64,000 nt of DNA from Candidatus Latescibacterota bacterium (GTDB lineage: Bacteria; Latescibacterota; CBDEFO01): assembly GCA_965248755.1 (NCBI GenBank), contig OZ252149.1, positions 2,464,001 through 2,528,000 on the forward strand. The letters run 5' to 3'. The position numbers were made by a program, and so were the translations under genes. The first letter of the stretch is position 1; each line of letters starts with the position of its first letter. Shown here piece by piece: positions 1 through 30,806 of the stretch. Under the pieces are notes generated by a model. It saw nothing but the letters and a program-made list of their open reading frames with translations. It had not been told where the DNA came from and searched no databases.

Positions 1-228
1 ATGAATGATGGGAGAGTTACAAATGGATTGAAACCTCAGACTTTCAGCAATCTCAGGACACAGTTGAAGGGAAGCTTGTTGGACAAGGAGGTCTTGAAGT
101 TCATCCAGAACGACGGATCTGGTAACTACCGTGTCTCTACCCATCCCGACTTTATCAGCTATGACAAGCAAAAACTGATCAATCACCCTAACCCTGATAT
201 CAGAAAAGTTGCAGAGGAATTGCCTTAA
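1..228 (+). CDS. Hypothetical protein, probably the 3' part of a gene running in from the left edge
   Basis: ORF open from base 1; ends just before recombinase-tail repeat copy 1. Confidence 0.55.
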   Translation: MNDGRVTNGLKPQTFSNLRTQLKGSLLDKEVLKFIQNDGSGNYRVSTHPDFISYDKQKLINHPNPDIRKVAEELP

Positions 229-240
229 AGAGTTGAATCA

Positions 241-370
241 TCACGCGGAGCTTTGTACGAGGATAGCCTCAGGCAGAAGACTGATTCTGGTATGACCCTT
301 GGCGCTCTGCTTCATTTCTAGCTTCGACTTATCCCACAAAAGTACGCTTTGGGACACCAATCCGGGGTGC
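241..370 (-). repeat. Copy 1 of 130-bp serine-recombinase 3' tail / putative att arm
   Basis: Similar to 7232-7361 and 14828-14957; shared TCCCACAAAAGTACGCTTTGGGACA and CCGGGGTGC; minus strand reads HPGLVSQSVLLWDKSKLEMKQSAKGHTRISLLPEAILVQSSA*. Confidence 0.9.
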
Positions 371-383
371 AATAAATAACAAC

Positions 384-421
384 GAGTTACGACAATTACT
401 TCGTAGTCACTTTCTTTTTTT
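384..421 (+). terminator. Imperfect hairpin plus T-run after CCGGGGTGC
   Basis: GTTACGA...TCGTAGT followed by TTTCTTTTTTT. Confidence 0.35.
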
Positions 422-592
422 CTACTGTTTTTCTACTGTAAATTTCCCCAACCCCACGAACAACTGGTTATCCAGTCGCTCTGTCGCCTCTTGGTGAAAT
501 TCCGGCATCAGGTGACCATACCGATCCAGGGTTGTTGTGATAGACGCATGACCAAGCTGTTTCTAGATGTACTTGGGACTTTCCCCTTGAGC
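422..592 (-). pseudogene. Tyrosine integrase C-terminal remnant
   Basis: Minus strand AQGESPKYI*KQLGHASITTTLDRYGHLMPEFHQEATERLDNQLF; LGH...T..Y catalytic box; in-frame TAG at 563-565. Confidence 0.85.
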
Positions 593-788
593 GGCATGCT
601 ATTACAACTATTAACTTGCATAAAAACTAAGGACACTATGAAACAGAATTACCCGATACTACACTTTTTGGAGAAGACCCAAATCATATTAAACCATTTC
701 GCCTTGCTATGCGTCTAAAACAGGTGAAAGAAGGAGCGCTCTAAACAAATATGGTTGTACATAACCTACAAAACAAGGAGGAAAACCG

Positions 789-1249
789 ATGATCAAGCGC
801 ACATCTGCCTTAGGAATTATTTCAGCGGCGCTATTTGCTCTCTACTGATGTGTAGAGAACGGAAGCCCTATTCCTACCGCCGATACGGAATCAGAAAGCA
901 TAAACTGTGCTGCTCTTACTGGGGACGATACCGTTGAGCCCGTGGGCAGCCCTGCGACGCAAGTCGGAAACTTGGCAAGAATGGCTGCTTTCCTCGGCCT
1001 CTCCGAAGGCCAAGTAGATGCGTTCAAGGAAATCAGGGAAAACAGCCGAGAGGAAGGAGAGGCTCTCTTTGAGGAACTGAAGACATACGGAGCGTACAGA
1101 GAAGGAATCAGAACAGCCAGCAGGAATTACACCAGCAGGAAAACGAAGAGATATTAGCCCTCCTTGACGATGAGCAAAAGGCCAAATGGGAGGAATTTCA
1201 AACGAAAATGCGGGAAAGGCGGCAGGATAATATAGGAAGACACAATTAA
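789..1249 (+). pseudogene. Spy/CpxP (LTxxQ)-like lipoprotein pseudogene
   Basis: AAGGAGG RBS; MIKRTSALGIISAALFALY*C with TGA at 846-848 in the lipobox; continues in frame through LGLSEGQ; frameshift near 1120 gives LLDDEQKAKWEEF. Confidence 0.7.
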
Positions 1250-1283
1250 GCACGCTACATTTTTCAAAGTAATTGAAGATCGG

Positions 1284-1334
1284 GGGGTCTAACGTCCGTC
1301 ATGTCGAATTCACAGACGTTACACCCCTTTTTTT
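1284..1334 (+). terminator. Rho-independent terminator-like hairpin
   Basis: GGGGTCTAACGTC...GACGTTACACCCC followed by T7. Confidence 0.55.
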
Positions 1335-1414
1335 CTCTTTCCCCAAGAAAGTTAAGTCTCTCCTGACAAAACGTATAATGTTGTGTCACTACTTTCTTTA
1401 AAGGAGGTCAAGCT

Positions 1415-3748
1415 ATGTATAGCTTCTCAAGAATCTCTCTGGCGAACGCAGCTATTCTGATCGCGCTTTTTGGTGCTTCCCCTTCTTCTGCTAAACAGCC
1501 GGTCATCAGTGCCCGTCCCTTAGGTATGGGAGAGACCTTCCTGGCGATAGCTGACGATGGCAACGCCCTGTTCTGGAATCCAGCAGGATTGCCCTCGTTG
1601 GGGCACCATGAGATTGTCAGCGGCTACACTGATCTCTTCGGAATCGGTATAAAGAATAACATCATAGGATACGTCTTCCCTATGGCGAACAACTATGCCC
1701 TTGGGTTTGACTGGGCACATTTAAGCTTTGAGGATACTGAATTAGGTTATAAGAAAGATAGCTTCAAGTTATCCTACGGGCATAGAGTCTGGCAGGAACT
1801 TTCCTTTGGCTCTGCTTTAAGATATATCACCACAGATGTGATTCTGGACTCATACTCGTTGGGGAAAGCTTCTGGATGGGGATTGGATATGAGTTTTTTG
1901 TATGCCCCTGTCAAGTGGCTGAAATTGGGGATGGTGGTTCAGGATGTGACAGATACCAACGTGGAGTATGATGACGGGAGTACGGAGGTAATTGATCCCA
2001 GATCGTTCCAGTTCGGGACGGCCTATCGGCCGATAGACGATCTGACGGTGGCCCTGGATGTGGACGATCAACTCCATTTCGGAGGGGAATACTGGCTCAG
2101 CAACAACATGCTGGGACTGAGAGGTGGTCTACAGAAGGACCTGGATACCTCGGAGCCGATGACGTATTCGGGCGGAGCGAGCATCCGCTATAAGCTGTTC
2201 CAGTTCGATTACGCCTATGTAATACCGCCGACTCTGCCCTCCAGCCATCGCTTCTCCCTGTCTCTCTCCTTCAACCTGTATCCTTCGATGGTGCGGATCA
2301 CGGAGACAGAGATCAATAACCTGTTCCCGGCGTTCCACAAGCGCTATGGCGTGCATCCACTGGGGAATGTGAAATTGGTCAACAGGGACGACAAACCCTA
2401 TCAGACTATGGTAAGCTTCTATATCCCCAAGCTGATGGATGCCCCTACAGAACAGCAGGTTATCATCCGGCCGAAGGAGACGAAGGAGGTTGGGCTTAAA
2501 GGGGTCTTTTCCAGTTCCATCACCGATTTGACCGAGGATATACTGACGCAGGCGGAAGTCAGGGTCTCCTATACGACAGAGCGCAAGACGAGGTCGGACA
2601 GGGAGTCGGCCAGTTTCTATGTCTACAGTCGCAATGCGACTACCTGGGACGATCTGGGGAAGGCGGCGGCCTTTATCACATCCAATGACCCGATCATAGC
2701 TGGATTCGCCCGGCCCACGTTGGTCTCGTTCGAGGAGGAGATCAAGAACCTGGGGCGTGGCAGTAGGAATCTGATGAGGGCGATGGTGCTCTTCGATGCG
2801 GTGAACGAGTACGGGGTGCGCTACATCTCCGATTCCAACAATCCCTACTCCCGAATATCTGCGGACAAATCTGCAGTGGACAACATTCAGTATCCTGTCG
2901 AGGTGTTGAAGAAGAAGTCGGGGGACTGCGACGATCTCACCGTGCTCTATTGCGCTCTTTTGGAGAACGTCGGTATTCCCACGGCGTTAGTGGATGCCCC
3001 TGGACATATCTATATGATGTTCGACAGCGGTGTTCCTATCCAAAAGGCCTACAGTCTCCCTATAGGCGAGAAACTGTATGTAGTTCGGGACGGCAATATT
3101 TGGATCCCTGTGGAGATCACCTTGTTCGGGAAATCGTTTATCGAGGCCTGGCGGTCCGGGGCAGGTGAATCCGCAAGTCTCTTGGAGGAGGGCAGACTCA
3201 GGGTCGTTGACACTTCGGATGCATGGCAGGAGTATGAACCTTCCCCTCCTAAATTTGAGGTGGAGATTTCCGTACCAACCAAGGAGCATATAACGGGAGT
3301 TTTCTCCTCAGATCGGTCGGGCTTGAAGGAGATGATGAATGCCTTTATAGAGCGCACCCACCTTGGGCCTCTGGGGGAGAGTCCAGAAGATTTTGATCTG
3401 CACTTTAACCTTGCCCGGATCTACACAGCGATCCGTGAGTACGAGCGTTCGATCTCCGAATATCAACGGCTCTTAAAGTCAGGTGCGGATCCTGCTCGTA
3501 TATATAACAATATAGGGAGACCCTACTTTTTGAAAGGAGAAGTAAGAGAGGCAGCTCACAGCTTCAAGCAGGCTATGGACTTGGATCCGACCGATGAGGG
3601 GGTCAAAAACAACTTCGAGTTGGCAATGTCATTTTTGGGGGAGGAAGAGCGGATAGCCTTTGCAAGAGAGATCGGCGCATCCTTGCCTGAGGGGCTCAAG
3701 GCAGCGGACTTTGAGGTGGATGAGGAAAGCATCTACTGGAGGGAGTAG
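1415..3748 (+). CDS. PorV/PorQ (UPF0164)-like beta-barrel fused to Ig-like, transglutaminase-like and TPR domains (copy 1)
   Basis: RBS AAAGGAGG; signal peptide; SARPLGMG...NPAGL barrel signature; GDCDD, PGHIY, PVEIT; TPR helices at C-terminus. Confidence 0.85.
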   Translation: MYSFSRISLANAAILIALFGASPSSAKQPVISARPLGMGETFLAIADDGNALFWNPAGLPSLGHHEIVSGYTDLFGIGIKNNIIGYVFPMANNYALGFDWAHLSFEDTELGYKKDSFKLSYGHRVWQELSFGSALRYITTDVILDSYSLGKASGWGLDMSFLYAPVKWLKLGMVVQDVTDTNVEYDDGSTEVIDPRSFQFGTAYRPIDDLTVALDVDDQLHFGGEYWLSNNMLGLRGGLQKDLDTSEPMTYSGGASIRYKLFQFDYAYVIPPTLPSSHRFSLSLSFNLYPSMVRITETEINNLFPAFHKRYGVHPLGNVKLVNRDDKPYQTMVSFYIPKLMDAPTEQQVIIRPKETKEVGLKGVFSSSITDLTEDILTQAEVRVSYTTERKTRSDRESASFYVYSRNATTWDDLGKAAAFITSNDPIIAGFARPTLVSFEEEIKNLGRGSRNLMRAMVLFDAVNEYGVRYISDSNNPYSRISADKSAVDNIQYPVEVLKKKSGDCDDLTVLYCALLENVGIPTALVDAPGHIYMMFDSGVPIQKAYSLPIGEKLYVVRDGNIWIPVEITLFGKSFIEAWRSGAGESASLLEEGRLRVVDTSDAWQEYEPSPPKFEVEISVPTKEHITGVFSSDRSGLKEMMNAFIERTHLGPLGESPEDFDLHFNLARIYTAIREYERSISEYQRLLKSGADPARIYNNIGRPYFLKGEVREAAHSFKQAMDLDPTDEGVKNNFELAMSFLGEEERIAFAREIGASLPEGLKAADFEVDEESIYWRE

Positions 3749-3783
3749 GGATCGCTGATTAATGTTGATAAAAGGAGCAAAAG

Positions 3784-6700
3784 ATGCACATGGACATTTG
3801 TCGGATAACGACGCTAACGGCGGTCATCGCCGTTGTCATCTTCGCCACAACTGCAAGTGCGGCAGAGTGGGAAAGCTTCACCACCGAAGATGGCCTGGCG
3901 GACAACACGGTCACATCCATCTTAGAGGACAGTGAAGGCAACTTGTGGTTTGGAACTTTAGGCGGTGTGAGCCGCTATGATGGGACGTGGACAACTTACA
4001 CCATAGAAGATGGTCTGGCAGATGACCTTGTCTTGACAATCTTAGAGGATCAAGACGGCAACCTCTGGTTTGGCACTAGAGAAGGCGTAAGCCGTTATGA
4101 TGGGCAAAGCTGGAGGACCTTCACTACTGAAGACGGTGTGCCAGACAACATAGTCAATGCTATCTTAGAAGACAGAGAGGGCAACATGTGGTTTGGCACT
4201 AGAGAAGGCGTAAGCCGCTATGATGGGGAAAGATGGACAACCTACACTACAGCAGATGGTCTGGCGCACAATGAGGTCCATTCGATCTTAGAGGATAGTG
4301 AGGGCAACCTGTGGTTTGGCACTCGTAGAGGCGCAAGTCGCTATGATGGGGAAACGTGGAATAGGGACACAATAAACGGTCACCTGGCCAACGATGTCCA
4401 GGCGATCCTAGAGGATAGAGATGACAACTTCTGGTTTGCAACTTCGGGAGGAGGCGTAAGCCGGTACGATGGCGAAACGTGGACGACATACGATAAGGAA
4501 AATGGTCTGGTGAACGACCGGGTCAGTGCGATCTTAGAGGATAGTGAGGGCAACCTGTGGTTTGGACATAGCTTGGATGTAAGGAGCGGAACTGGGGGCA
4601 TCACTCGCTATAACGGGCAGAGATGGACAACCTACACCACAGATGATGGGCTGGCGGACAACTGGGTCAGAGCGATCTTAGAGGATAGTGAGGGCAACCT
4701 GTGGTTTGGCACTAATGGGGGCGCGAGCCGCTATGATGCAACGTGGACGACATACACCATAGAAGATGGACTGGGACACAACCAGGTCTGGACGATCTTA
4801 GAGGATAGTAGAGAAAACCTGTGGTTTGGAACTAGAGAGAGTGGCGTGAGTCGCTACGATGGCAAGATATGGACTACCTTCACCACAGCAGATGGCCTGG
4901 CAGGCAACTGGATCAGGACTATCTATGAGGATCGAGAGGGCAACCTGTGGTTTGGAACTAGAGAAGGCGTAAGCCGCTATGATGGCCAAAGCTGGAAGAC
5001 CTATACCAGAGACAGCACGAATGGTGGTCTGGCATTAGACATTGTCAATGCGATACTGGAGGATACAGCGGGGAATCTATGGTTTGGAACTGAGATGAGA
5101 GGCGTAAGTCGATATGATGGGACAACATGGATAACATACACTGAAGATGATGGCTTGGCACACAACAGGGTCAATGAGATCTTGAAGGATAGTGAAGGCA
5201 ACCTATGGTTTGGAACCAGTGAGGGCGTTAGCCGCTATGATGGGGAAATTTGGAAAACCTACGGCGAGATTGATGGACTCGTTAATAACTCGGTCATGGT
5301 GATCATGGAGGATAGAGAGAGCAACTTATGGTTTGGTACTGGATCAGGTCGAATTGATGGGGGCATAAGCCACTATGATGGGGAGACGTGGACGACATAT
5401 ACCAGAGAAGATGGGCTGGCAAACGACTTTGTCAATGCGATCATGGAGGATAGTGGGGGCAACTTGTGGTTTGGAACTCAAGCAGGCCTGAGCCGCTTTG
5501 ACGGGGAGAGATGGATTACGTATTCCGCAGCTGATGGCCTGGCAGACAGCAGGGTTAATGCAATCTTGGAGGATAGTGACGGCCACCTGTGGTTTGGAAC
5601 TGGTGGAGGGGTAACCAGATACAGAGTTGAAAGAACGCCGCCCAACACATTTATATTAGATGGTCCAGGAGAAATAATCGGCGTCCCACAAGCTTTCTTC
5701 GAATATAATGGTGGGGATAGGTATTCACCAGACGAAGATGTGCAATTTGGGCATGCCATCAAGAACGATCAAGACAAGCCCATTCAAGCCGATTGGTCGA
5801 GTTTTACAGATCACACCTCTACCCTTACAGATCCCCTTCCCAACGGCACCTATACGTTCTACGTACGAGGAAGGGACGAAGTGGGTAACATCGATCTTTC
5901 TCCTGCCAAAAGGAGCTTCACTGTCGAATTAACCCCGCCGATAGTGGCGATCAGTTCCCCATCGAGCAACGAAATTACTCATGGTAATGTAAACATCCGG
6001 GGCTCGGCCTTTGACAACTCCGATATCCCCAACTTTGGGAGCTATACGTTGGAATACGGGAAAGGATCGGATGAGGACAAGATATCAGAATGGCTTAGTA
6101 TAAGGGATAGAGCGGTTAAGCCTGTCGTAAATGACCTTTTAGGCATGTGGGACACCGAGGGGCTATTCGGCACCTATGTCCTCAGGCTTAGCGCTGTGGA
6201 CGGCTTCGATCACAGGAGCAAGTATGCCATCACCGTCCACGTGGTTGCGGCAGCCGTTGAGGTAGATCACAGTAGTGGAGGACATATCACCGATTCAGCG
6301 AGCAACGTGGATCTCTACATTCCCCCCAATGGCATTCCCAAGAGCACGCAGGTGACGATCACTCCCATTGCGCTTGAAGGTGTCGCAAAGCCCTCTGCTC
6401 TGAATTTGCACCTTACTGGGATGGCATACGACATCGGTCCGAAGGATCTTGCGGTGCTGAAACCTGTAACCTTTACGATGTCCCTTGATAAAGTTGAGAT
6501 AGCTGAGGTGCCAGATCTTGACAAGTTGGCAATCTTTACCCGGTCATCTTCGGACAATCCCTGGGAAAGAGTCGGTGGCACGGTCGATGAGAGGACAGGG
6601 AAGATGATAGTAGCCCTCACACACTTTGGGAGATTCGCGGTTATGGAGGATCTTTCTGAGGAAGAAGGAAAGCTTTCCATTTCGGATGTGAACTGTCAGC

Positions 6701-6978
6701 CGAGGGTGTTCTCCCCGGAGGGAGGAGCATATGACACCAAGACCACGTTATCCTTTAATCTTGGAAGAAGGTCAGAGGTTACAGTGAAGGTCTACGATGT
6801 CTCAGGACGTTTCAAGAGGAGGTTGCTCAAGGATAGAACGATGAATCGGGGTAGCAACGCGGTAGTCTGGGATGGCAGGGATCATCATGGGAAGGTAGTA
6901 GTCAATGCACTGTATGTGGTGGCTGTGGAGGCTAATGGGAAGGTGGAGACGAAGACGGTAGTAGTATTGAACAAGTGA
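3784..6978 (+). CDS. Secreted 14-blade two-component-regulator-type beta-propeller with YYY-like, Ig, ZU5-like and FlgD/T9SS-like C-terminal domains
   Basis: Signal peptide; 14 ILEDxEGNLWFGT repeats; YTFYVRGRD; LYIPPNG...THFGRFAV; PRVFSP...WDGRD...KTVVVL tail. Confidence 0.85.
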   Translation: MHMDICRITTLTAVIAVVIFATTASAAEWESFTTEDGLADNTVTSILEDSEGNLWFGTLGGVSRYDGTWTTYTIEDGLADDLVLTILEDQDGNLWFGTREGVSRYDGQSWRTFTTEDGVPDNIVNAILEDREGNMWFGTREGVSRYDGERWTTYTTADGLAHNEVHSILEDSEGNLWFGTRRGASRYDGETWNRDTINGHLANDVQAILEDRDDNFWFATSGGGVSRYDGETWTTYDKENGLVNDRVSAILEDSEGNLWFGHSLDVRSGTGGITRYNGQRWTTYTTDDGLADNWVRAILEDSEGNLWFGTNGGASRYDATWTTYTIEDGLGHNQVWTILEDSRENLWFGTRESGVSRYDGKIWTTFTTADGLAGNWIRTIYEDREGNLWFGTREGVSRYDGQSWKTYTRDSTNGGLALDIVNAILEDTAGNLWFGTEMRGVSRYDGTTWITYTEDDGLAHNRVNEILKDSEGNLWFGTSEGVSRYDGEIWKTYGEIDGLVNNSVMVIMEDRESNLWFGTGSGRIDGGISHYDGETWTTYTREDGLANDFVNAIMEDSGGNLWFGTQAGLSRFDGERWITYSAADGLADSRVNAILEDSDGHLWFGTGGGVTRYRVERTPPNTFILDGPGEIIGVPQAFFEYNGGDRYSPDEDVQFGHAIKNDQDKPIQADWSSFTDHTSTLTDPLPNGTYTFYVRGRDEVGNIDLSPAKRSFTVELTPPIVAISSPSSNEITHGNVNIRGSAFDNSDIPNFGSYTLEYGKGSDEDKISEWLSIRDRAVKPVVNDLLGMWDTEGLFGTYVLRLSAVDGFDHRSKYAITVHVVAAAVEVDHSSGGHITDSASNVDLYIPPNGIPKSTQVTITPIALEGVAKPSALNLHLTGMAYDIGPKDLAVLKPVTFTMSLDKVEIAEVPDLDKLAIFTRSSSDNPWERVGGTVDERTGKMIVALTHFGRFAVMEDLSEEEGKLSISDVNCQPRVFSPEGGAYDTKTTLSFNLGRRSEVTVKVYDVSGRFKRRLLKDRTMNRGSNAVVWDGRDHHGKVVVNALYVVAVEANGKVETKTVVVLNK

Positions 6979-7231
6979 TTTCGGGACAGGACATACTGAA
7001 GGGATGAGGTCACAGGGAGTGTGCTGATGATAAATAGTTAAGTGCCCACGAAGTAAGTTTGCGTCACTTGTAATTATAGGAACTAAAACTGAAGTGCTAA
7101 AATGTTGAGACACCTGAAGCGATCTTTCACCTACGAGGGAAGTATATGAAAACTTCGAGTATCACCTCTGTGTCCGTCTGGTTCTTTTAGCAGACACCGT
7201 TGACAACGTTGACGCAATGAAAGGAAAAGCG

Positions 7232-7361
7232 TTAGGCGGTGCTTTGTACTGGGATAGACTCAGGAAGAAGACTGATTCTTGTATGACCTGTTGCTACTCG
7301 TTTCATTTTCAGCCTTGACTCATCCCACAAAAGTACGCTTTGGGACATCAGCCCGGGGTGC
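7232..7361 (-). repeat. Copy 2 of 130-bp recombinase tail / putative att arm
   Basis: Reads HPGLMSQSVLLWDESRLKMKRVATGHTRISLLPESIPVQSTA*; residual similarity (CCCCxAAAGTTGGTA) to the recombinase extends to ~7400. Confidence 0.9.
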
Positions 7362-7487
7362 GAAATTCGTTCTAGAAACTTACTGCCCCTAAAGTTGGTA
7401 TAGCGTAAATGATCAAATAGAAGAAGCCCGCCATTTCTGACGGGCTGTGTGTCCAATCTTGTACGGTGCACAAAAAGGTCTGGAAAT

Positions 7488-8906
7488 CTACCGCATCAAC
7501 ACAAGCTTCCTTATCTTCACAAATTCTTCCGATCCATCCGTCTCCAACCGATACACATAGATTCCGCTGGCAAGACTCTTTCCACTATCATCTGTTCCAT
7601 CCCAGACTGTAGAGTGCCTTCCCGCATCCATCTGCTCATGTACCAATGTTGCAACCTTCTGTCCTATCATATTATAGATGGATACATCAACGTGGCTTTG
7701 AGCGGGAAGGTCGTAATGGATCACCGTCTCCGGGTTGAAGGGGTTAGGGAAGTTTTGATGCAATGCATAGGTGTCAGGAACATCGGAAACGCCATCAGAT
7801 TGGGGAATAACTACACTAAAAAGACCTTCGTTCAATTGAGCAGAGACTAGATCAATCCCCGATAGATCCACTCGGGGATCAATCTCACCAATAGTCTCAA
7901 TCTGCGAATCTACAGGCTCAAATATAATCTCACCAATCCTACCGCTGCCTTCAACTGATTCTACACCAGCAAACGATAGCCTTAATCTGCCATCTTGAGC
8001 ATTGTTGGCGAAAAGATAATCAGAGGTCAAGTGGGATGTTCTGGCATCTACGGCTTTGAGTTTGGCCGGATCAAAAGATAGTTCAAGTTGACCCGACAGG
8101 ACACCGTCCATTTCATCTATGAGGACAGGAACGACAAAGCGCCCATCAGGCAAAGCCTCTACATCACCTAAACTGATAATCCTTTTGGCAAGTACAGTCT
8201 TAGGGATGCCTCCTGTCTCAGCAGGAAACTGAGTTAATTGCCCAACAACGAACCTGAGTATCAAAGAGCCGTCAAAGGGACTTATAGTTCCGTCTCCACT
8301 GACATCAGCTGCTATAGTGTCAGAAATTACAAAGAGACCTACTGTGGATCTAAGCACCAAAGCAGCATCAAATGCCATCACCCTTCCGTTGTGGCTAACA
8401 TCTCCTACCAATCCAGAAACCTGCACAGATCCGCCCTGTAAAGCTGCCGCGGGATCGCCCTCGTTGAAGAAGAATCTCTCAAAAACCAATGCTGTAGAAT
8501 CGCCGATGACTGCCGATTCGGAGACTGCAAATCTGATAAAGATAAGGTCTCCCGATCCTGATAATATGTCGACTCCCATAGTCGCCATTGCAATCTTGAC
8601 GGTGTCTATAAGTGTTCCCATGCCCGTTACGACCGTGTCAGCTATCGCCCAACCTTCGCTCAGTGTCCCTCCCAACGCTACTTCTATTGCCTCTATTACA
8701 TCTGAATCGTAAGTGATATTCATTTGGACTGAGATAATTTCAAGCCCTGTTACGTCATCTTTGATAAGGACAGGAACTGAAACCGTATCGCCGATAGAGA
8801 TAGATGTGTCCGGAAGACTAACTGAGACTGTAACTACTTGAGAAGAAACACGCGCATTCAAAGCGACCAGCAGGATCAGAGCAGTAGAGAAAATTATATG
8901 CCTCAT
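7488..8906 (-). CDS. Secreted cohesin-like/dockerin-like protein with T9SS type-A-like/FlgD sorting domain
   Basis: Signal peptide; GDVSHNG...FDA and ADVSGDG...FDG dockerin repeats; QNFPNPFNP...WDG...LASGIY...RKLVLMR. Confidence 0.85.
   Translation of the reverse strand: MRHIIFSTALILLVALNARVSSQVVTVSVSLPDTSISIGDTVSVPVLIKDDVTGLEIISVQMNITYDSDVIEAIEVALGGTLSEGWAIADTVVTGMGTLIDTVKIAMATMGVDILSGSGDLIFIRFAVSESAVIGDSTALVFERFFFNEGDPAAALQGGSVQVSGLVGDVSHNGRVMAFDAALVLRSTVGLFVISDTIAADVSGDGTISPFDGSLILRFVVGQLTQFPAETGGIPKTVLAKRIISLGDVEALPDGRFVVPVLIDEMDGVLSGQLELSFDPAKLKAVDARTSHLTSDYLFANNAQDGRLRLSFAGVESVEGSGRIGEIIFEPVDSQIETIGEIDPRVDLSGIDLVSAQLNEGLFSVVIPQSDGVSDVPDTYALHQNFPNPFNPETVIHYDLPAQSHVDVSIYNMIGQKVATLVHEQMDAGRHSTVWDGTDDSGKSLASGIYVYRLETDGSEEFVKIRKLVLMR
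7856..7878. repeat. Palindrome family A (TCCCCGAT-N7-ATCGGGGA), inside CDS
   Basis: 27-bp in-frame insertion relative to both paralogs, TCAA duplicated. Confidence 0.8.
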
Positions 8907-9024
8907 TTTGAGTCCTCCTTTGGTCTATAAAATACTGACTATGACTATACTACTGAAGCCCGGTTGAATTTATGTCACTTCCCCATCTGTGGGCTGAAGA
9001 TGGCTTTATGATGTCGAAATGAGC

Positions 9025-11427
9025 CTATCTCATCAAGATCAGCTTTCTCGTTTTCACGAATCCATCCGCCTCTATCCGATACAGATACACGCCGCTGGCA
9101 AGACTTCTTTGGTTGTTATCTTTGCCATCCCAGACTATAGAGTGTCTGCCTGCATCCATCTCCTTATCCATCAATATCGCTACCCTCTGTCCTATCATAT
9201 TATAGACAGATATGTCAACGTGGCTTCGGAGCAGAAGGTCGTAATGGATCACCGTCTCAGGATTAAACGGATTGGGATAGTTCTGATACAATGAATAGCT
9301 GTCAGGGATATCGGAGATCGCTTCAAATTGGGGAATAACAACACTGAAGAGCCCTTCGTTCAATTGAGCGGAGAGTAGAGCAATCTCACTGATAGCCTCA
9401 ATTTCCGAATCTACCGGCTCAAATATAATCTCTGCGATCCTACCGCTGCCATGAACCGATTCTACCCCGGCAAACGATAGCTTCAATCTGCCATTTTGAG
9501 CATTATGGGCGAAAAGATAATCAGAGGTCAAGTCAGATGTTCTGGCATCTACGGCTTTGAGTTTGGTCGGATCAAAAGACAGTTCAAGCTGACCTGACAA
9601 TACACCGTCCATTTCGTCTATGAGAACAGCGACAGTAAAGCGTCCATCAGGCAAAGCCTTTATGTTACCTAAACTGATAATCCTTTCGGCAAGTACGACC
9701 TTAGGAGTACCAGCAGGAAATACGCTTATTTTCCCAATAACAAACCTGAGTATCAACGACGCATCAAAGGCACTTATAGTGCTATCTCCACTGACATCCG
9801 CTGCAACAGTGTCAGAGATTGCAAAGAGACCAACTGCGGATTTAAGAACCAAAGCAGCATCAAATGCCGTTACCTCTCCATTGCGGCTGACATCTCCTAC
9901 TAACCCAGTAACTCGCACAGACCCATCCGCTGTAATTGCCGCTGGATCGCCTTCGTTGAAGAAGAATCTCTCAAAGACCAATGCTGTAGAATCACCGATG
10001 ACTGCCGAATCGGAGACTACAAACTTGATAAAGACAAGATTTCCAGACCCTGATAATGTGTCAGGTCCCGGAGCTACCATTACAATCTTGACTGTGTCTG
10101 TAGATGTTCCAATGCCTGTTGTGACTGTGTCATCTTTCACCCAACCTACGGTCAGTGTGTCTCCTAACTCTATCGCTACTACCTTTATTACATTTGAATC
10201 GTAACTGATATTCATCTGGGCTGAGATAATTCCAAGCCCTGTCACGTCCTCTTCGATAACAACAGGGACTGAAAGCGTATCACCGATAATAGTAGAGATA
10301 GATGTGTCCGGAAGACTGACTGGAACAGGTCCCTCCACCTTACGTATCCGGTGATTGTTTGTATCCCCGATATAGATATTGCCCGATACATCCACGAATA
10401 CGCCATGAGGACCATTCAAACTTGCATTGGTAGCTTGACCTCCATCACCGGAAGATCCAGCAGCGCCATTTCCCGCCACGGTAGAGATGTTGCCAGCTGC
10501 ATCCACTTTACGTATCCGGTGATTGACAAATTCCGCAGTATAGATATTGCCCAGTCCATCAACGAATACGCCAAGAGGATTATTCAAGCTCGCACTGGTA
10601 GCTGGACCTCCATCACCGGAAAATCCAGCAGTGCCATTTCCTGCAACGGTGGAGATGATGCCCGACGTATCCACCTTACGTATCCGGTGATTGTTCTGAT
10701 CCGCAATATAGATATTGCCCGATCCATCCACGAATACGCCAAAAGGCACATTCAAGCTCGCACTGGTAGCTGGACCTCCATCACCGGAAAATGCAAAAGT
10801 GCCATTTCCTGCCACGGTATTGATGATGCCCGACGTATCCACCTTACGTATCCGGTGATTGTTTGTATCCCCGATATAGATATTGCCCGATACATCCACG
10901 AATACGCCACGAGGATTATTTAAACTCGCACTGGTAGCTGGACCTCCATCACCGGAAAATCCCTGGGTGCCATTTCCTGCCACGGTGGAGATGATGCCTG
11001 AAGTATCCACCTTGCGTATCCGGTGATTGGTCTCATCCGCAATATAGATATTGCCCAATCCATCCACGAATACGTCACGAGGACCATTCAAACTTGCACT
11101 GGTAGCTGGACCTCCATCACCGGCAAATCCAGCAGTGCCATTTCCCGCCACGGTGGAGATGATGCCCGAGGTATCCACTTTACGTATCCGGTGATTTCCA
11201 AATTCCGCAGTATAGACATTCCCGAATCCATCCACGAACGTGCCCATAGGCTTATTCAAGCTCGCACTGGTAGCTGCACTTCCATCACCGGAAAATCCCT
11301 GGGTGCCATTTCCTGCCACGGTGGAGATGTCTCCCGGTGCAGCAGCAACGGAAGGGACAAAACCAAACATCCAAAAGCCCAAAACCAAAATACTAATCAT
11401 GCTCTCTCTAAAGTAATTCTTTCTCAT
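9025..11427 (-). CDS. Secreted NHL-repeat (6x) + cohesin/dockerin + sorting-domain protein
   Basis: Six 56-aa ISTVAGNG...NHRIRKVD repeats; same C-terminal module as neighbours; start set at ATG 11427 after GGGGGTG. Confidence 0.85.
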   Translation of the reverse strand: MRKNYFRESMISILVLGFWMFGFVPSVAAAPGDISTVAGNGTQGFSGDGSAATSASLNKPMGTFVDGFGNVYTAEFGNHRIRKVDTSGIISTVAGNGTAGFAGDGGPATSASLNGPRDVFVDGLGNIYIADETNHRIRKVDTSGIISTVAGNGTQGFSGDGGPATSASLNNPRGVFVDVSGNIYIGDTNNHRIRKVDTSGIINTVAGNGTFAFSGDGGPATSASLNVPFGVFVDGSGNIYIADQNNHRIRKVDTSGIISTVAGNGTAGFSGDGGPATSASLNNPLGVFVDGLGNIYTAEFVNHRIRKVDAAGNISTVAGNGAAGSSGDGGQATNASLNGPHGVFVDVSGNIYIGDTNNHRIRKVEGPVPVSLPDTSISTIIGDTLSVPVVIEEDVTGLGIISAQMNISYDSNVIKVVAIELGDTLTVGWVKDDTVTTGIGTSTDTVKIVMVAPGPDTLSGSGNLVFIKFVVSDSAVIGDSTALVFERFFFNEGDPAAITADGSVRVTGLVGDVSRNGEVTAFDAALVLKSAVGLFAISDTVAADVSGDSTISAFDASLILRFVIGKISVFPAGTPKVVLAERIISLGNIKALPDGRFTVAVLIDEMDGVLSGQLELSFDPTKLKAVDARTSDLTSDYLFAHNAQNGRLKLSFAGVESVHGSGRIAEIIFEPVDSEIEAISEIALLSAQLNEGLFSVVIPQFEAISDIPDSYSLYQNYPNPFNPETVIHYDLLLRSHVDISVYNMIGQRVAILMDKEMDAGRHSIVWDGKDNNQRSLASGVYLYRIEADGFVKTRKLILMR

Positions 11428-11586
11428 AGTGTACACCCCCATAGTTTTCGGCTGACGGCATAGTCCGTCGGGTTTGACAGGATATTGACTGTACTAAAGC
11501 CTGAGCGAATTTGCGTCACTTTCCTTTGCGTAGGCTGAAGATGGCAAATATACGTTTGAATGTAACCCCCTAGCAATGAAAGGAAC

Positions 11587-14259
11587 TTATCTCATCAAGA
11601 TCAGCTTCCTCGTTTTCACGAATCCATCAGCGTCTATCCGATACAGATACACGCCGCTGGCAAGACTTCTTTGGTTGTTATCTTTGCCATCCCAGACTAT
11701 AGAGTGTCTGCCTGCATCCATCTCCTTATCCACCAATATCGCTACCCTCTGTCCTATCATATTATAGACAGATATGTCAACGTGACTTCGGAGGGGAAGG
11801 TCGTAATGGATCACAGTCTCAGGATTGAACGGATTGGGATAGTTCTGATACAATGAATAGCTGTCAGGAACATCGGAAACGTCTTCAGATTGGAGAATAA
11901 CTACACTAAAAAGACCTTCGTTCAATTGAGCAAAGATTAGATCAATCCCTCTAATAGCCTCAATTTCCAAATCGACAGGCTCAAATATAATCTCTGCGAT
12001 CCTACCGCTGCCTTGAACCGATTCTACGCCGGCAAACGATAGCCTTAATCTTCCATCTTGCGCGTTATGGGCGAAAAGATAATCGGAAGTCAAGTCTGAT
12101 GTCATAGCATCTACGGCTTTGAGTTTGGCCGGATCAAAAGACAGTTCAAGCTGACCTGACAATACACCGTCCATTTCGTCTATGAGAACAGCGACAGTAA
12201 AGCGTCCATCAGGCAAAGCCTTTATGTTACCTAAACTGATAATCCTTTCGGCAAGTACGACCTTAGGAGTACCAGCAGGGAATACGGTTATTTTCCCGAT
12301 AATAAACCTGAGCGTCAAAGAGGCATCAAAGGCACTTATGGTGCTATCTCCACTTACGTCCGCTGTTATAGTGTCAGAAATTACATAGAGACCGACTGTG
12401 GATTTAAGTATCAAAGCGGCATCAAATGCTGTTACCTCTCCGTTGCGGCTGACATCTCCTACTAACCCAGTAACTCGCACAGACCCGTTCTGTGTAATTG
12501 CCGCTGGATCGCCTTCGTTGAAGAAGAATCTCTCAAAGACCAATGCTGTAGAATCACGCAAGACTGCCGAACCAGAGACTATAAACTTGATAAGGACAAG
12601 ATTTCCAGATCCTGATAATGTGTCGGGTCCTGGAGCCGCCATTACAATCTTGACTGTGTCTATAGATGTTCCAATGCCTGTTGCGACTGTGTCATCTGTC
12701 ACCCAACCTTCGGCCAGTGTCCCTCCCAACGCTACCTCTATTGCCTTTATTACATTTGAATTGTAACTGATATTCATCTGGGCTGAGATGATTCCACTCC
12801 CTGTCACGTTCGCTTCGATCACAACAGGGACTGAAAGCGTATCACCGATAATAGTAGAGATAGATGTGTCCGGAAGACTGACCGGAATCGGAGTAAAGGT
12901 AAAACCGCTAAAGAGCGTGTCTGCCTGACCGTCGGAATTTGTGACTATCACGTCCACAGAGCCACCAGGATGAGGGGGTGTGTTGGCAGTAATGATGCTA
13001 TCCGACGATACGACCACATTTGTAGCTGCACTATCACCGAAAGTAACAGTCGCTCCACTTCTGAAATCGCGCCCCGTTATCGTCACAGACGTACCGCCCG
13101 ATTGTGTGCCGGAAGTGGGACTAATAGATGTTACAGCAGGTGCTGGGAATCCCTCTACCTTACGTATCCGGTGATTGAACGAATCCGCAATATAGATATT
13201 GCCCAATCCATCCACAAATACGCCCTGAGGAGCATTCAAACTTGCACTGGTAGCTGGACCACCATCACCGGAAAATGCTGCAGTGCCATTTCCTGCTACG
13301 GTATTGATGATGCCCGACGTATCTACCTTACGTATCCGGTGATTGCCCTTATCCGTAATATGGATATTGCCCAATCCATCCACGAATAAGCGAATAGGCT
13401 GATTCAAACTGGCACTGGTAGCTTGACCACCATCACCGGAAAATGCTGCAGTGCCATTTCCTACTACGGTATTGATGATGCCCGACGTATCCACCTTACG
13501 TATCCGGTGATTGTTAAAATCCGCGATATACATGTTGCCCAATCCATCCACGAATACATCAGTAGGACTAAACAAGCTCGCACTGGTAGCTTGACCAGCA
13601 TCACCGGAAAATGCAAAAGTTCCATTTCCTGCCACGGTATTGATGATGCCTGACGTATCCACTTTACGTATCCGTTGATTTTCATTATCCGCTATATAGA
13701 TATTGCCCGATCCATCCACGAATAAGCCAGAAGGAGAATCCAAACTGGCACTGGTGGCTGGACCGCCATCGCCCCCAAAAGAACCGTTGACACCACCAGC
13801 CCCATTTCCTGCCACGGTGGAGATGATGCCCGACGTATCCACCTTACGTATCCGGTGATTGCCCGTATCAGAAATATAGATAACCCCCAATCCATCCACG
13901 AATACGTCATAAGGGAATCTCAAGCTCGCACTGGTAGCTGGACCACCATCACCGGAAAATGCTTCAGTACCATTTCCTGCCACGGTGGAGATGATGCCCG
14001 ACGTATCCACCTTACGTATCCGGTGATTAGAATGTTCCGCAATATAGATATTGCCCGCACCATCCACGAATACGCCCAAAGGACTATTCATACTTGCACT
14101 CGTAGCTGGACCACCATCACCGGAAAATCCAGCAGTGCCATTTCCTGCTACGGTGGAGATGTCTCCCGGTGCAGCAGCAACGGAAGGGACAAATCCAAAC
14201 ATCCAAAAGCCCAGAACGAACACGCTAATCAGAATCTCGTTGAAGTGATTCTTTTTCAT
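11587..14259 (-). CDS. Secreted NHL-repeat (6x) + IPT/TIG + cohesin/dockerin + sorting-domain protein
   Basis: Six NHL repeats; PAVTSISPTSG...GGTSVTITG IPT/TIG domain; QNYPNPFNP...TRKLILMR. Confidence 0.85.
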   Translation of the reverse strand: MKKNHFNEILISVFVLGFWMFGFVPSVAAAPGDISTVAGNGTAGFSGDGGPATSASMNSPLGVFVDGAGNIYIAEHSNHRIRKVDTSGIISTVAGNGTEAFSGDGGPATSASLRFPYDVFVDGLGVIYISDTGNHRIRKVDTSGIISTVAGNGAGGVNGSFGGDGGPATSASLDSPSGLFVDGSGNIYIADNENQRIRKVDTSGIINTVAGNGTFAFSGDAGQATSASLFSPTDVFVDGLGNMYIADFNNHRIRKVDTSGIINTVVGNGTAAFSGDGGQATSASLNQPIRLFVDGLGNIHITDKGNHRIRKVDTSGIINTVAGNGTAAFSGDGGPATSASLNAPQGVFVDGLGNIYIADSFNHRIRKVEGFPAPAVTSISPTSGTQSGGTSVTITGRDFRSGATVTFGDSAATNVVVSSDSIITANTPPHPGGSVDVIVTNSDGQADTLFSGFTFTPIPVSLPDTSISTIIGDTLSVPVVIEANVTGSGIISAQMNISYNSNVIKAIEVALGGTLAEGWVTDDTVATGIGTSIDTVKIVMAAPGPDTLSGSGNLVLIKFIVSGSAVLRDSTALVFERFFFNEGDPAAITQNGSVRVTGLVGDVSRNGEVTAFDAALILKSTVGLYVISDTITADVSGDSTISAFDASLTLRFIIGKITVFPAGTPKVVLAERIISLGNIKALPDGRFTVAVLIDEMDGVLSGQLELSFDPAKLKAVDAMTSDLTSDYLFAHNAQDGRLRLSFAGVESVQGSGRIAEIIFEPVDLEIEAIRGIDLIFAQLNEGLFSVVILQSEDVSDVPDSYSLYQNYPNPFNPETVIHYDLPLRSHVDISVYNMIGQRVAILVDKEMDAGRHSIVWDGKDNNQRSLASGVYLYRIDADGFVKTRKLILMR

Positions 14260-14827
14260 GGAGTACACCCCCACAATTTCCTTATGAATTAAAATCGATA
14301 TCTCTCAACAGCATAGCCCTAACGCATCAGTGGTTAGATATCTTATATCGGCAACAATTTAGTAACTATCCGATAAGACCTTTCGATGCAATAAGCGTGT
14401 TGGGGAAATAACCCGAGCTGATAAATAATCTTTTCAAAACGAGCATGGACTTTGTACAGATCAAATCCGATCCATTGCCTTACCACCAATCTGCTTTTTG
14501 CTCGGATCAGGATATGGAAACACCGCAAAAGATATTACCATAAATATATGCAAATTCTAAATCTTTGTCAAATTGTTTGCGATTATATCTTTATATTTTA
14601 CAATTCTTTATTATTTGTCCACTATTCTACCAATACTACAAAAGGATATGTAAAGTTTGCTAGGAAGGCGCCAAAGCTTTAATTATACCTATCGCTAATT
14701 ACCAAAACGAAAGCGATCGGTTTCTGACAGTCTCTGTTTTAATACTGGCTAAGCTTTTGTGCAAAAGATTTTTGGAAGACGAACGGAAAGAGAAGGTTGC
14801 TGAGTGTTCCCGTGTGAGTAGAAAGCG

Positions 14828-14957
14828 TCAAGCAGGGATTTGTACTGGGATAACCTCAGGAAGAAGAGTGATTCTGGTATGACCTTTTGCTACTCGTTTA
14901 ATTTCCAGCCTTGACTTATCCCACAAAAGTACGCTTTGGGACATCGATCCGGGGTGC
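14828..14957 (-). repeat. Copy 3 of 130-bp tail, here fused in frame as the recombinase C-terminus
   Basis: Encodes HPGSMSQSVLLWDKSRLEIKRVAKGHTRITLLPEVIPVQIPA*. Confidence 0.9.
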
Positions 14958-16519
14958 CAGATACACGAATCCCGACTAACCTTTTCCCCCAAAGTTGGTA
15001 ACTTGGGAAACATTGTCGAGTTTCCAAATAGAGCTAAGCGAATTTCCTGAGGTGTCCAGACAATCAGGTTGATCTGAAGCATTATCAACTCTTTCTTCTC
15101 CTCAGGTGTTGCTTCGGTAAAAAGCTCGGAGAAGGTCGTGAGCCTACCTTTCAAGGTATTGGCATTTACGACCTTTCTCTTTGCCTCTATCATCTCCATC
15201 TCCAGCTTCTGTATCTCTTCACCCAACTGTTCTTTTCGTTCCTCCAACTCAACAATCTTCTGACTCACTGATTTGATCTGCACCTTCCCATCGGCTAGGC
15301 TTTCAACTAAGGTGTTGATTCTCTGCTCTATGCTGCCCCGGTGTTCGGACAGCCGATCCTTTGCCTCTGTCAATTCCTGTAGAAAACCCGAAGATTGGGC
15401 GGTAGCATTTTGGACCATCTCCGATACAAGGTTGGGGTCTTCCTTCAGCTGTACCAACCGTTTTACAATCACATCTTCTAATGCTGCTGCGGGAACAGAG
15501 CTCATCCGGAACTCTTTATTTCCAAGATGCTGCGTTTTCGTACAGGTATAATAGAAGTAAGGTTTCCTCTCGTGGTTGTAAACAAAGTAGGGTGTCATAA
15601 AGGCATTGCACTCCCCACATCGGACAAGCCCCTGCAGAATAAAGAGGTGTTTGGTATGTTTCCTTCCCCTGGACTGCTTCACCTGATTGGACTGAATGAT
15701 CCTCTGCACCTTTTCAAACAATTCCTCTGGCACGATGGGCTTATGCTTCCCGTCGTAGCAATTGCCTTTGTGAACCACTTTGCCGATGTAATAGGGGTTT
15801 TGAAGAACCCTGCTGACGTGAGTGTCTATAAACTTCGTCCCGCCGTGTACCTGCCCTCGGCGTGATGTATAGGATTTGGTCCGGTAGCCCTTGGCATTGA
15901 TGATATTGGCAACCCTCATAAAGGATTTCTCTTTCACATAGGTTTCAAAGATCAACATCACGAGTTTCTTTTCTTCCTCATTCACTTTAAGGATTCCCGG
16001 ATTGTCAGGATCAATGTCATAACCGAGAATCTGTCCACCACTACTCAGTCCCTGTTCTGCTCTCCACTGCATCTTCTCCCTGGTGCGGCTTGCTGTCTGC
16101 TCCCGTTCAAGTTCCGCAGCAGCAAGAGTAATTTTCAGGGCAAAGCGACCTATAGGTGTGGAGGTGTCCCAATTCTCATTAAGTGAGATAAACGTAACTT
16201 CGTATTCTTCCAGTAGCTCGTGGAAATGGTAGAAGTCCATTAACGAACGACTAATCCGATCTATTTTGGTGCAGAGAATAGCGTTGACCTTTCCATTCTT
16301 AATATCTTGGATCATATGTTGGTATTCAGGTCTGTCTGTGTTCTTGCCTGACTTTCCTTCCTCACGATACGTGGCAACAGTTCTCCAATCTTCTCCTGTC
16401 GAGCTGTTCTTGATCTCCACATACTTTTTCAGGATGTCAAGCTGTGTGTCTAGAGAACCATCTTTTTTATGTGCTTGAAGCTCAGTCGAGACCCTAACAT
16501 AGAGTCCACACTTCTTCAT
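14828..16519 (-). CDS. Large serine recombinase (resolvase + recombinase + zinc-ribbon/coiled-coil)
   Basis: YVRVST catalytic Ser; SGK..DRP; DRISR; NPYYIG; LVRCGEC...YYTC; RBS AAGGAG. Confidence 0.95.
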   Translation of the reverse strand: MKKCGLYVRVSTELQAHKKDGSLDTQLDILKKYVEIKNSSTGEDWRTVATYREEGKSGKNTDRPEYQHMIQDIKNGKVNAILCTKIDRISRSLMDFYHFHELLEEYEVTFISLNENWDTSTPIGRFALKITLAAAELEREQTASRTREKMQWRAEQGLSSGGQILGYDIDPDNPGILKVNEEEKKLVMLIFETYVKEKSFMRVANIINAKGYRTKSYTSRRGQVHGGTKFIDTHVSRVLQNPYYIGKVVHKGNCYDGKHKPIVPEELFEKVQRIIQSNQVKQSRGRKHTKHLFILQGLVRCGECNAFMTPYFVYNHERKPYFYYTCTKTQHLGNKEFRMSSVPAAALEDVIVKRLVQLKEDPNLVSEMVQNATAQSSGFLQELTEAKDRLSEHRGSIEQRINTLVESLADGKVQIKSVSQKIVELEERKEQLGEEIQKLEMEMIEAKRKVVNANTLKGRLTTFSELFTEATPEEKKELIMLQINLIVWTPQEIRLALFGNSTMFPKLPTLGEKVSRDSCIWHPGSMSQSVLLWDKSRLEIKRVAKGHTRITLLPEVIPVQIPA

Positions 16520-16645
16520 TGCTCACTCCTTATCGTCAAGTCTGTTCTAGAAAGTATTTTACTATTAGAAAAGTGAGAATAACAATTTGTTTTATCAATA
16601 GGTTAAATATAATTCAAGCCAACGCTCAAGTCAAGCAAAATCAGG

Positions 16646-16681
16646 GTACAAACTAACATACTGAAGTATGTTAGTTTGTAC
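16646..16681. repeat. Perfect 17-bp inverted repeat with 2-bp spacer upstream of the recombinase
   Basis: GTACAAACTAACATACT-GA-AGTATGTTAGTTTGTAC. Confidence 0.9.
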
Positions 16682-16719
16682 TTTTATCAACTATCCTTAA
16701 GTATATCTCTTGATATAAA

Positions 16720-18115
16720 GGTCAAGTCCTATTTTTAGTTGAAATTAGTCGGGCTCCGATCGTAACGTCATGCTGATAACGCTTCTTTAGAGAGATTCAA
16801 TTCTTTCTGAATAGCTTGTCTCATCAGGGGCAAATAGCTCGTCCCCTTCACTTTTCGCAATCGAGGTTCAATATCCAGAAGAGCACTGGCCAGCCATCGG
16901 CATCGCTGATGTGAATTTTTCCATACTTTAACGTTTCTTGTCAGTTGAGCAACCTGACTGTTTATGGATTCGAGGCAGTTGGTCGTTCTGAAACTGGTCT
17001 TCAAGTAAGGAAACAGACCTAACCGGTGAAGAGTTAAGGTCTCCTCGAAACCCTCTTCCAGACTCTTCAAAGCCGACCGGTTCGTCAAGACTAATTCGGG
17101 TTTGAGAGCATTCAATGCTCTTTTAGCTCCTTCGTAGGTCTCCTGATTATAAGCACCCTGAAGCTTTCGCCGCATATTGGCCTGCTGGTTCTTGGGAAGA
17201 TAGGAGACCACATTTTCTCGTTTATGCCACTGACATCTTTGAACACAGACATAGCCTTTCAGTGGTTTGACGATGGCGTTATATAGCCCTTTGGATCCAT
17301 CTACTATGACTAAAAGACCGACTTCATAGCGCAATCCACGGTCAATGAGACTTCGGATAAACTGTCGGCAGACCCGTTCGTTCTCTGTGGCTGCCTGAAT
17401 AAACCCAAGGGCAACCTTTTCACCGTCGATTGTAATACCTAGAGCAATGAGCATCTCCTGATCGGCAAAGGTCTTCCCGTCGATAAATAGAGCCACCAAA
17501 TCATACTGCTGTAGGGACCGCTCCTGGAACTCTTTAAGCTTACGAGCCGAAGCCTTGATAAAACGCCGTGATACACTCGAGGAAGATAGACCAAAGGCAC
17601 CGGGGATCGCCTCGGCACAAGCTTCATACTCTCGAGAGGAGATACCTTTCAGAACACGAAGCAGCAAACCCTCATCTATCTTTCGAGGCACTTGCAGAGC
17701 TTGATAAGACTCCAAAGACACTTCGGCGTTGGCATCTACATTGCGCACCCGAGGCACCGAAACAGGAAGCTTCTGATCTGCCAGATAGACCGATCCGTTT
17801 TGTCTACCCCAACGACGATGAGGAACCTCAACCCCTTTACGACTATATCGTGTTCCCACTAAACCGACAACCTCCTGTTGCAATAAATCGCTTACGGCTT
17901 CCAGTCCCAAGGGAATTAACTCCTGAATCAAAGCAACGCGAACATCTACAGCCTGAAACTCTTTTTCAACAGACTTGACTTTCGAGGAGTTAGAACTTAT
18001 TTTTCTCATCACGGGCTCCTTGAGTTAAAGATATGAAGTTTTCATGCAAACTTCTATTCCATATCTAATTTAACCTTGGAGCCTTCTCTATTTTAACTAA
18101 TTTAGGGACATCCCC
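16720..18115 (-). mobile_element. IS256-family insertion sequence
   Basis: Imperfect terminal IRs GGTCAAGTCCTATTTTTAGTTGAAA / GGGGATGTCCCTAAATTAGTTAAAA around a transposase; no TSD seen. Confidence 0.8.
16768..18012 (-). CDS. IS256-family (Mutator-like) transposase
   Basis: LFIDGK, IVDGSKGL, QRCQWHK, RTTNCLES motifs. Confidence 0.92.
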   Translation of the reverse strand: MMRKISSNSSKVKSVEKEFQAVDVRVALIQELIPLGLEAVSDLLQQEVVGLVGTRYSRKGVEVPHRRWGRQNGSVYLADQKLPVSVPRVRNVDANAEVSLESYQALQVPRKIDEGLLLRVLKGISSREYEACAEAIPGAFGLSSSSVSRRFIKASARKLKEFQERSLQQYDLVALFIDGKTFADQEMLIALGITIDGEKVALGFIQAATENERVCRQFIRSLIDRGLRYEVGLLVIVDGSKGLYNAIVKPLKGYVCVQRCQWHKRENVVSYLPKNQQANMRRKLQGAYNQETYEGAKRALNALKPELVLTNRSALKSLEEGFEETLTLHRLGLFPYLKTSFRTTNCLESINSQVAQLTRNVKVWKNSHQRCRWLASALLDIEPRLRKVKGTSYLPLMRQAIQKELNLSKEALSA

Positions 18116-18172
18116 TCTCTACTTCCTTTTCCAATAAGGGTCTTAATCTGTCAAATGTTTCTTCTACCATCT

Positions 18173-21586: not shown

Positions 21587-21596
21587 GGAGGCAGTT

Positions 21597-22499: not shown

Positions 22500-22531
22500 T
22501 ATTTACCTTTCGCCGTTGCCAGGGGTTTTCT

Positions 22532-30065: not shown

Positions 30066-30132
30066 GACAGTGATCCATTACTATTGCTCGAAGGTCGCGC
30101 TTTCGCTATCTGAATCATAGGAGGGATGTCCA

Positions 30133-30705: not shown

Positions 30706-30712
30706 TCCTTGG

Positions 30713-30772: not shown

Positions 30773-30806
30773 TGCCTACTGTCTACTTGAACGGGGGTGC
30801 TTTCAG

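Follow-up and report, generated by a model that had tools for sequence, protein, structure and literature searches.

Three 130-bp direct repeats in a 64,000-nucleotide stretch of a Candidatus Latescibacterota genome (hereafter the window) mark an array that is very probably a decayed tandem stack of tRNA-targeting islands of large serine recombinases (LSRs), the repeats being P arms, the distal arms of attachment (att) sites, stranded at island ends. LSRs of this kind would insert islands immediately ahead of the CCA end of a tRNA gene, with attP lying inside the 3' end of the LSR gene. In the circle, the LSR gene would cross the crossover into the P arm and end with a 42-residue tail; after insertion, it would read into antisense tRNA, and the tail would be stranded at the island's distal end. 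If several islands entered in turn at one tRNA-Arg(UCU), each newcomer settling between the tRNA and the older ones, the tails would come to abut the former tRNA-side ends of older elements: that of a tyrosine-integrase island for copy 1, of an integrase-less island for copy 2 and of the island of the recombinase LSR3 for copy 3. All three right flanks can be read as such ends, and we therefore infer stacking with the newcomers nearest to the tRNA. An insertion sequence (IS) would later have split the gene of a second recombinase, LSR0, and IS-mediated rearrangement would have carried the array 0.8 Mb from its tRNA.

A first-pass annotation of this DNA had placed the crossover within the recombinase gene, with its C-terminus swapped, and had suggested tandemly accreted islands. 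The former is borne out by the layout in relatives and by an in silico excision, and the latter by the tRNA-side right flanks and by the split LSR0 gene on tRNA-Arg(UCU). Beyond that annotation, our analysis points to the tRNA CCA end as the target, to tRNA-Arg(UCU) as the anchor, and to a different, broken recombinase outside the window as the enzyme that the tails fit. Plain numbers below are window positions; G000 denotes the genome of the window (4.54 Mb) and G001 a sister genome.

Probable stranded recombinase arms and a split gene

The repeats lie at 241-370 (copy 1), 7232-7361 (copy 2) and 14828-14957 (copy 3), and their positions and spacing (6991 and 7596 bp) reproduce those first described. 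Ungapped pairwise identities are 105, 107 and 114 of 130 (81-88%), against 11-20 of 60 in the flanks. The minus strand of all three copies holds an open 42-residue frame with a common stop position, 74-79% identical to that of copy 3; the uninterrupted tail previously reported thus stands, as does the point at which the copies diverge, directly behind CCGGGGTGC. A recombinase, with Resolvase, Recombinase and Zn-ribbon domains, is joined to copy 3 only, again as annotated. The identical core claimed for the three copies is also present, at 26 bp (331-356) rather than 25; its description as hairpin-like carries no weight, because shuffled sequences fold just as well as the repeat does (z -0.45 to +0.78, six of six strands). 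Searches by blastn and by profile found no further copies in the 4.54-Mb genome beyond the three, the tail profile matched 2 of 168 genomes of the phylum (both of this genus), and viral contigs gave 0 matches to the repeat core. A candidate fourth copy at 33450 was rejected, since CCGGGGTGC there sits within a coding gene and has no tail. A tRNA or noncoding RNA inside the repeat was likewise rejected: ARAGORN found 0 tRNA genes in the window, and Rfam gave no credible match over 1-20000, with a single weak snoRNA match (E 1.7) lying outside the repeats.

The layout of insertion and excision is shown in relatives, from which recombination itself is presumed. Among 119 homologs of LSR3, the position where the tail would start is followed by an antisense-tRNA peptide in 80, a stop at the junction in 10 and other endings in 18, and 11 are short; of 119 LSR0 homologs, 60 end there in antisense-tRNA peptides (such endings were counted by a rough pattern test). 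All six full-length homologs of at least 50% identity whose DNA was examined overlap a tRNA 3' end (Glu, Gln or Met), and a tRNA is present at 16 of the 30 loci examined overall. A complete layout is seen in the genome G040, where a 25.0-kb island (C1:3854.9-3879.9 kb) carries its LSR on tRNA-Gln at one end and an orphan helix-turn-helix (HTH) tail at the other. Both ends contain a 9-bp core, which is the last bases of the tRNA, and in silico excision yields a single 660-aa frame; this places attP within the LSR gene and makes the tail the second of its arms. In a few homologs (P0005, P0070) the recombinase continues in frame into a ParB-type HTH domain. The stranded tail of relatives (L094/L008 in G040; L090-L093; P0005, P0070 and P0223) is such a domain of 130-160 aa, and at L091-L093 it is fused to short recombinase-end remnants with no enzyme. 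Judged from these sequences, the HTH tail would join the recombinase in frame only on excision. Metagenome contigs with the repeat core (two sequence types) all have the tail followed by a tRNA-like end and no recombinase (4 of 4), and in the same four a terminator-like hairpin with a T run, read by eye, comes after the tRNA-like end. The short tail in these contigs looks like attR.

The anchor of the array itself was recovered by reconstruction, through what appears to be a single split gene. LSR0 (G000:C1:2440139-2441290) begins 22.7 kb to the left of the window, and an IS interrupts it at G000:2440138. The C-half of a recombinase, at G000:1636184-1635690, runs into tRNA-Arg(UCU), and an IS of the same family cuts it. 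The 4-bp duplication beside the IS ends is identical at both breaks, and 4 bp is the length found at other copies of this IS. Against the intact homolog P0122, the halves align to residues 1-384 (83% identity) and 385-546 (79%) with no gap, and we take them to be one gene; if so, the array would have hung on tRNA-Arg(UCU) until an IS-mediated rearrangement displaced it by 0.8 Mb. The ending of this tRNA, GGGCGTGCCA, is close to the repeat core, and the crossover is predicted at a GT that lies four bases ahead of the tRNA end. Synteny is of no help, G000 and G001 being too rearranged to confirm the former order of array and tRNA. Among viral contigs, one LSR0-clade gene runs into a tRNA-like end at the contig edge. 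The IS family has about 80-90 ends with 4-bp duplications in G000 (e.g., at 2434660-2440137 and 1636182-1645312), and composite units have spread one gene fragment to several places.

The tails also point to LSR0 as their probable cognate enzyme in preference to LSR3. Compared as inverted arms centred on GT, they match 16-17 of 25 positions in the LSR0 arm but 9-11 in the LSR3 arm. Among 200,000 random genome 25-mers, 16-17 of 25 is reached by a fraction of 5e-6 to 4e-5, a null that makes no correction for the choice of symmetry centre, which was picked by eye after the sequences had been seen and to that extent tells against the stacked-island reading. Of the 240 proteins over which the tail profile was run, just three matched: LSR3 and, from the LSR0 clade, P0192 and P0153, these two with the tail in frame. 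The LSR0 and LSR3 clades are 34% identical and are split at 100/100 in the tree; we used this split alone, a label test for tail type being uninformative (500 of 500 shuffles as low). A word-based tail search of the protein database returned the query only (1 of 2 candidates) and missed P0192 and P0153, so it provides no evidence of rarity.

On the minus strand, copy 1 is a P arm with the 42-aa LSR tail, the probable attR of the 24-kb island 0 to its left, and its putative crossover is the GT at 367-368 (16/25 inverted identity to the LSR0 arm). Copy 2, also on the minus strand, is a P arm with the same kind of tail and a putative crossover at GT 7358-7359 (17/25 to the LSR0 arm). The flanks to the right of these two copies belong to two unrelated families of island ends. 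The tRNA-proximal end of a tyrosine-integrase island (371-593, plus strand) is of a sequence family found elsewhere behind the 3' ends, or fragments, of tRNA-Ala, tRNA-Lys and tRNA-Arg. Within it, the 3' end of a relic tyrosine integrase (422-577, minus strand; 46 residues) has what we take to be the LGH...Y box and is 84% identical to the end of the Phage_integrase match at G000:3934334, with no Pfam match alone. The integrase-less island end (7362-7511, plus strand) elsewhere sits directly on tRNA-Arg(UCU), tRNA-Asn or a tRNA-Arg(ACG) fragment, replacing the CCA; in G001 it heads a 77-80% paralog of the interval-B cargo directly on tRNA-Arg(UCU). At G000:C1:3158783 (tRNA-Asn) and at the G001 loci L046, L048 and L045, the encoded CCA of three tRNA types is replaced by this end, which always heads cohesin/dockerin/FlgD genes or their ends.

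The 42-residue tail

The tail is likely under selection at the protein level, as judged by codon comparison. Over five copies from the genus, dN/dS pooled for the part outside the core is 0.35, uneven between pairs, and the remaining five frames have stops in each of these copies; variable columns fall on codon positions 1, 2 and 3 in 9, 10 and 15 cases. All seven distinct DNA copies are open in the tail frame. Against metagenome copies, 68-95% of synonymous sites are changed (near saturation), compared with about 30% of non-synonymous sites. Counting against selection, and against the reading of the array that includes it, dN/dS exceeds 1 in 2 of 10 pairs, and all copies stay open in 13% of neutral simulations.

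The open frame might instead be a by-product of selection on the DNA site alone, with the peptide incidental, an explanation that is compatible with the stacked-island architecture and that we consider plausible, if short of even chances. The chance openness just mentioned favours it, as do the wide variation of tails within the family, the absence of a Pfam match and the AlphaFold model, which has no confident structure for the tail (pLDDT <50 over residues 506-563 of LSR3). The pooled dN/dS, the excess of synonymous change, the seven open copies and the in-frame ParB-type HTH domains of relatives oppose it. More tentatively still, the P-arm tail may be a working module that is switched on by excision and governs directionality or the maintenance of the circle with no need of a separate directionality factor, stacking then swapping modules between clades that are 34% identical; we regard this as rather unlikely as it stands. 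Under it, the circle-encoded enzyme would gain the 42-aa tail or, in relatives, a 130-160-aa ParB-type HTH domain that is absent from the integrated form.

LSR3 and the architecture of the array

LSR3 (14828-16519, minus strand) is a 563-aa LSR with Resolvase, Recombinase and Zn-ribbon domains in order. The catalytic residues R9, S11, D87, R88 and R91 are present, by reference to those given for large serine integrases in PMC12884075. Three zinc ligands (C301, C304 and C326) are kept; the fourth is Phe at 337, a position that is Cys in 78 of 78 homologs, and sample contigs show 0 differences over this stretch. The predicted fold is confident for residues 1-505. A Mutator/IS256-family transposase (16768-18012, minus strand) lies 250 bp upstream. 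With LSR0 split as well, the array has probably lost its mobility. A scan for promoters and terminators around LSR3 gave results at chance level; an inverted repeat of 16 pairs at 16646-16681, 130 bp upstream of LSR3, is a possible operator or terminator.

Copy 3 (14828-14957, minus strand) is a P arm whose 42-aa tail is fused in frame to LSR3, with a putative crossover at GT 14954-14955 and an identity of 11/25 with its own right arm. It is best read as a hybrid, attP-like junction in which the tail of LSR3 would be borrowed, because arm symmetry and the tail profile favour the LSR0 clade and the nearest relative of LSR3 in G001 (85% nucleotide identity) has an HTH-type tail, not the short one. 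Alternatively, copy 3 could be the intact attP of LSR3 itself, its circle having entered the chromosome otherwise, with intervals A (between copies 1 and 2) and B (between copies 2 and 3) being satellites inserted successively into attP. The in-frame fusion suits this alternative, and so do two further tail-to-LSR junctions in G001 with no tRNA nearby, one of which matches copy 3 and its flank at 91% over 638 bp; the matched flank is the non-coding stretch beyond tail 3 (14329-14827, no strand assigned). No other far end of the LSR3 island was found either: HTH-tail profiles gave 3 matches elsewhere in the genome and 0 to the right of LSR3, although the profile missed a decayed tail at G000:C1:2462421-2462611. 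We nevertheless consider an intact attP improbable, in view of the HTH-type tail on both the G001 relative and P0005, the occurrence of the short tail otherwise on LSR0-clade proteins, and the arm symmetry; it also leaves the tRNA-downstream nature of flanks 1 and 2 unexplained.

The other architecture proposed in the first-pass annotation was an integron-like cassette system. Integrons have an IntI tyrosine recombinase beside attI, and attC sites that are single-strand hairpins. A version in which LSR3 is a sedentary recombinase that captures and reshuffles ~7-kb surface-protein cassettes at repeated sites is most improbable: three compatible GT-centred sites do bracket two blocks of exported-protein cargo, and G001 also has a tail beside a cargo-A paralog, but the attC-like fold is absent, the ends of the intervals trace to families of islands that are unrelated (one of them a relic of a tyrosine integrase), no att copy separates the B genes, which are three tandem paralogs, the cargo families occur genome-wide (B at 83 loci, 15 of them within 10 kb of a tRNA; A1 at 9), LSR3 lacks one zinc ligand and fits the tails worse than LSR0 does, and no joints were seen among those listed. 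None of 15 Phage_integrase matches falls in the array, the nearest being 99 kb to the right of LSR3, and the 46-aa relic is all that represents a tyrosine integrase there. The likeness to integrons is superficial, consisting of repeats that separate gene blocks; the array has no IntI and no attC hairpin, and its multi-gene blocks are in both orientations with unrelated, non-uniform ends. Cassette order can be compared with one sister genome only, which is heavily rearranged.

Several points weigh against the reading as stacked tRNA-targeting islands. The circle or deletion junctions anticipated in the first-pass annotation were seen at none of the copies among the 15 joints listed, of 26, with 350 loose contig ends outside the listing; the material was contigs, not reads, from three runs of one sample, and assembly drops rare variants. 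In these contigs, junctions 2 and 3 are bridged with 0 differences. Contig depth is 6.3-8.8 over 14184-16889, against 2.7-5.1 for the listed A/B contigs (two runs); it was not used as evidence, because the runs had been found with that very stretch and depth is not copy number. Searches of the genome turned up no far end for the LSR3 island; a DNA query for LSR0 found nothing in G001, and the joined LSR0 gene has been seen in no genome. The decayed HTH-type tail (1.4-1.6 kb left of the window) lies inside island 0, just before a WD40 gene that ends at 228, and is unexplained; it is probably another old island junction. Finally, the left ends of A and B pair with the tails as inverted partners at only 6-9 of 25 positions. 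A and B are therefore not clean units or intact satellites; judged by their sequence, they are probably composites that deletions have trimmed.

Related systems and neighbouring features

In Bxb1/phiC31/A118-type systems, att sites have a short common core and imperfect inverted arms. The recombinases described here resemble them in having Resolvase, Recombinase and zinc-ribbon domains, a catalytic Ser, a D-R-x-x-R motif and a short core with inverted arms, and differ in that attP lies inside the gene of the enzyme and the targets are tRNAs. Staphylococcal SCC composite islands and cis-mobilizable elements are stacked head to tail at one site by serine recombinases and include integrase-less passengers. 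Stacking of this kind, with such passengers, is common to both systems; the array differs in having one enzyme where SCC has CcrA/CcrB, a tRNA target where SCC uses a protein gene, and mixed tyrosine- and serine-type ends.

The closest precedent is the ssrA islands of Dehalococcoides (McMurdie et al. 2011, PMC3146451), which are tandem at one RNA gene, many of them without an integration module. DsiB, a serine recombinase of ~540 aa, is encoded on the reverse strand, and the 3' end of its gene overlaps attL in all cases. The authors proposed that a complete enzyme is made only from the circle, or where a neighbouring island contributes the missing 3' fragment, and the idea of a directionality switch for dsiB was already voiced there (PMC3146451). 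Like the DsiB islands, the array is tandem, is anchored at an RNA gene (by reconstruction), and has a recombinase whose 3' end overlaps the attachment site. Unlike them, it would target the tRNA CCA end (Arg-UCU; Gln, Asn, Glu and Met in relatives) and not the tmRNA T-loop, and the tmRNA of G000, at 3050946, is unrelated to the array. Its repeat is a 130-bp coding arm, compared with a 20-bp target copy in PMC3146451, and its tail is likely under purifying selection and is a ParB-type HTH domain in relatives. The DsiA, ParB and Mom proteins of the six-gene ssrA module given there were not seen among the five island-0 proteins scanned (two sigma-70-like, one exchanger, two without a match), and it is an IS that lies upstream of LSR3. 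Since this layout is already in print for DsiB, the window alone is a decayed example.

What it adds is an attB/attP pair predicted for tRNA-Arg(UCU) at its CCA end, for which the same clade offers intact enzymes; a stranded tail with evidence of protein-level selection, which in relatives is a whole HTH domain; and what looks like a natural exchange of tails between recombinase clades that are far apart. For genome engineering, tRNA ends offer conserved landing sites. The selected tail and its HTH counterpart make the question raised in PMC3146451, whether the enzyme is complete only on the circle, directly testable, and the possible role of the tail as a regulatory module gained on excision is the part that most deserves a test. 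Searches of the literature listed no paper on tRNA-CCA-targeting LSRs with an HTH tail gained on excision, and the word "tRNA" has 0 occurrences in the main text of an LSR survey (PMC10083194); such enzymes may be present in the supplements of that survey or in the TIGER/Islander tables.

The cargo of the intervals consists, in part as first annotated, of coherent sets of secreted-protein genes, except that interval A starts with the tyrosine-integrase relic. Behind that relic lie a frameshifted, lipoprotein-like pseudogene (790-1250, plus strand; open homolog at G000:2296006), cargo A1 (1415-3748, plus strand; 777 aa with transglutaminase-like and TPR domains) and cargo A2 (3784-6978, plus strand; a 1064-aa Reg_prop beta-propeller with a FlgD-Ig C-terminal domain). 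The A gene pair has an 83% paralog from 60162 on, followed by more propeller genes and with no tail adjoining; in G001, a closer relative of this second copy does follow a tail. Cargo B (7488-14274, minus strand) comprises three tandem paralogs of 472, 805 and 895 aa with cohesin, dockerin and FlgD/secretion-tail domains, two of them with NHL repeats, and its 83-locus family is a large expansion of this combination within one chain. To the right of the array, 21098-39567 holds a cluster that encodes two proteins with caspase domains, CHASE2/cyclase-like sensors and a giant, repeat-rich surface protein whose gene seems to be split at 24453-24469. Elsewhere in the genome, a recombinase C-terminal remnant at G000:C1:4313341-4313490, behind tRNA-Arg(ACG), points away from the tRNA, unlike the usual arrangement, in a region common to G001.

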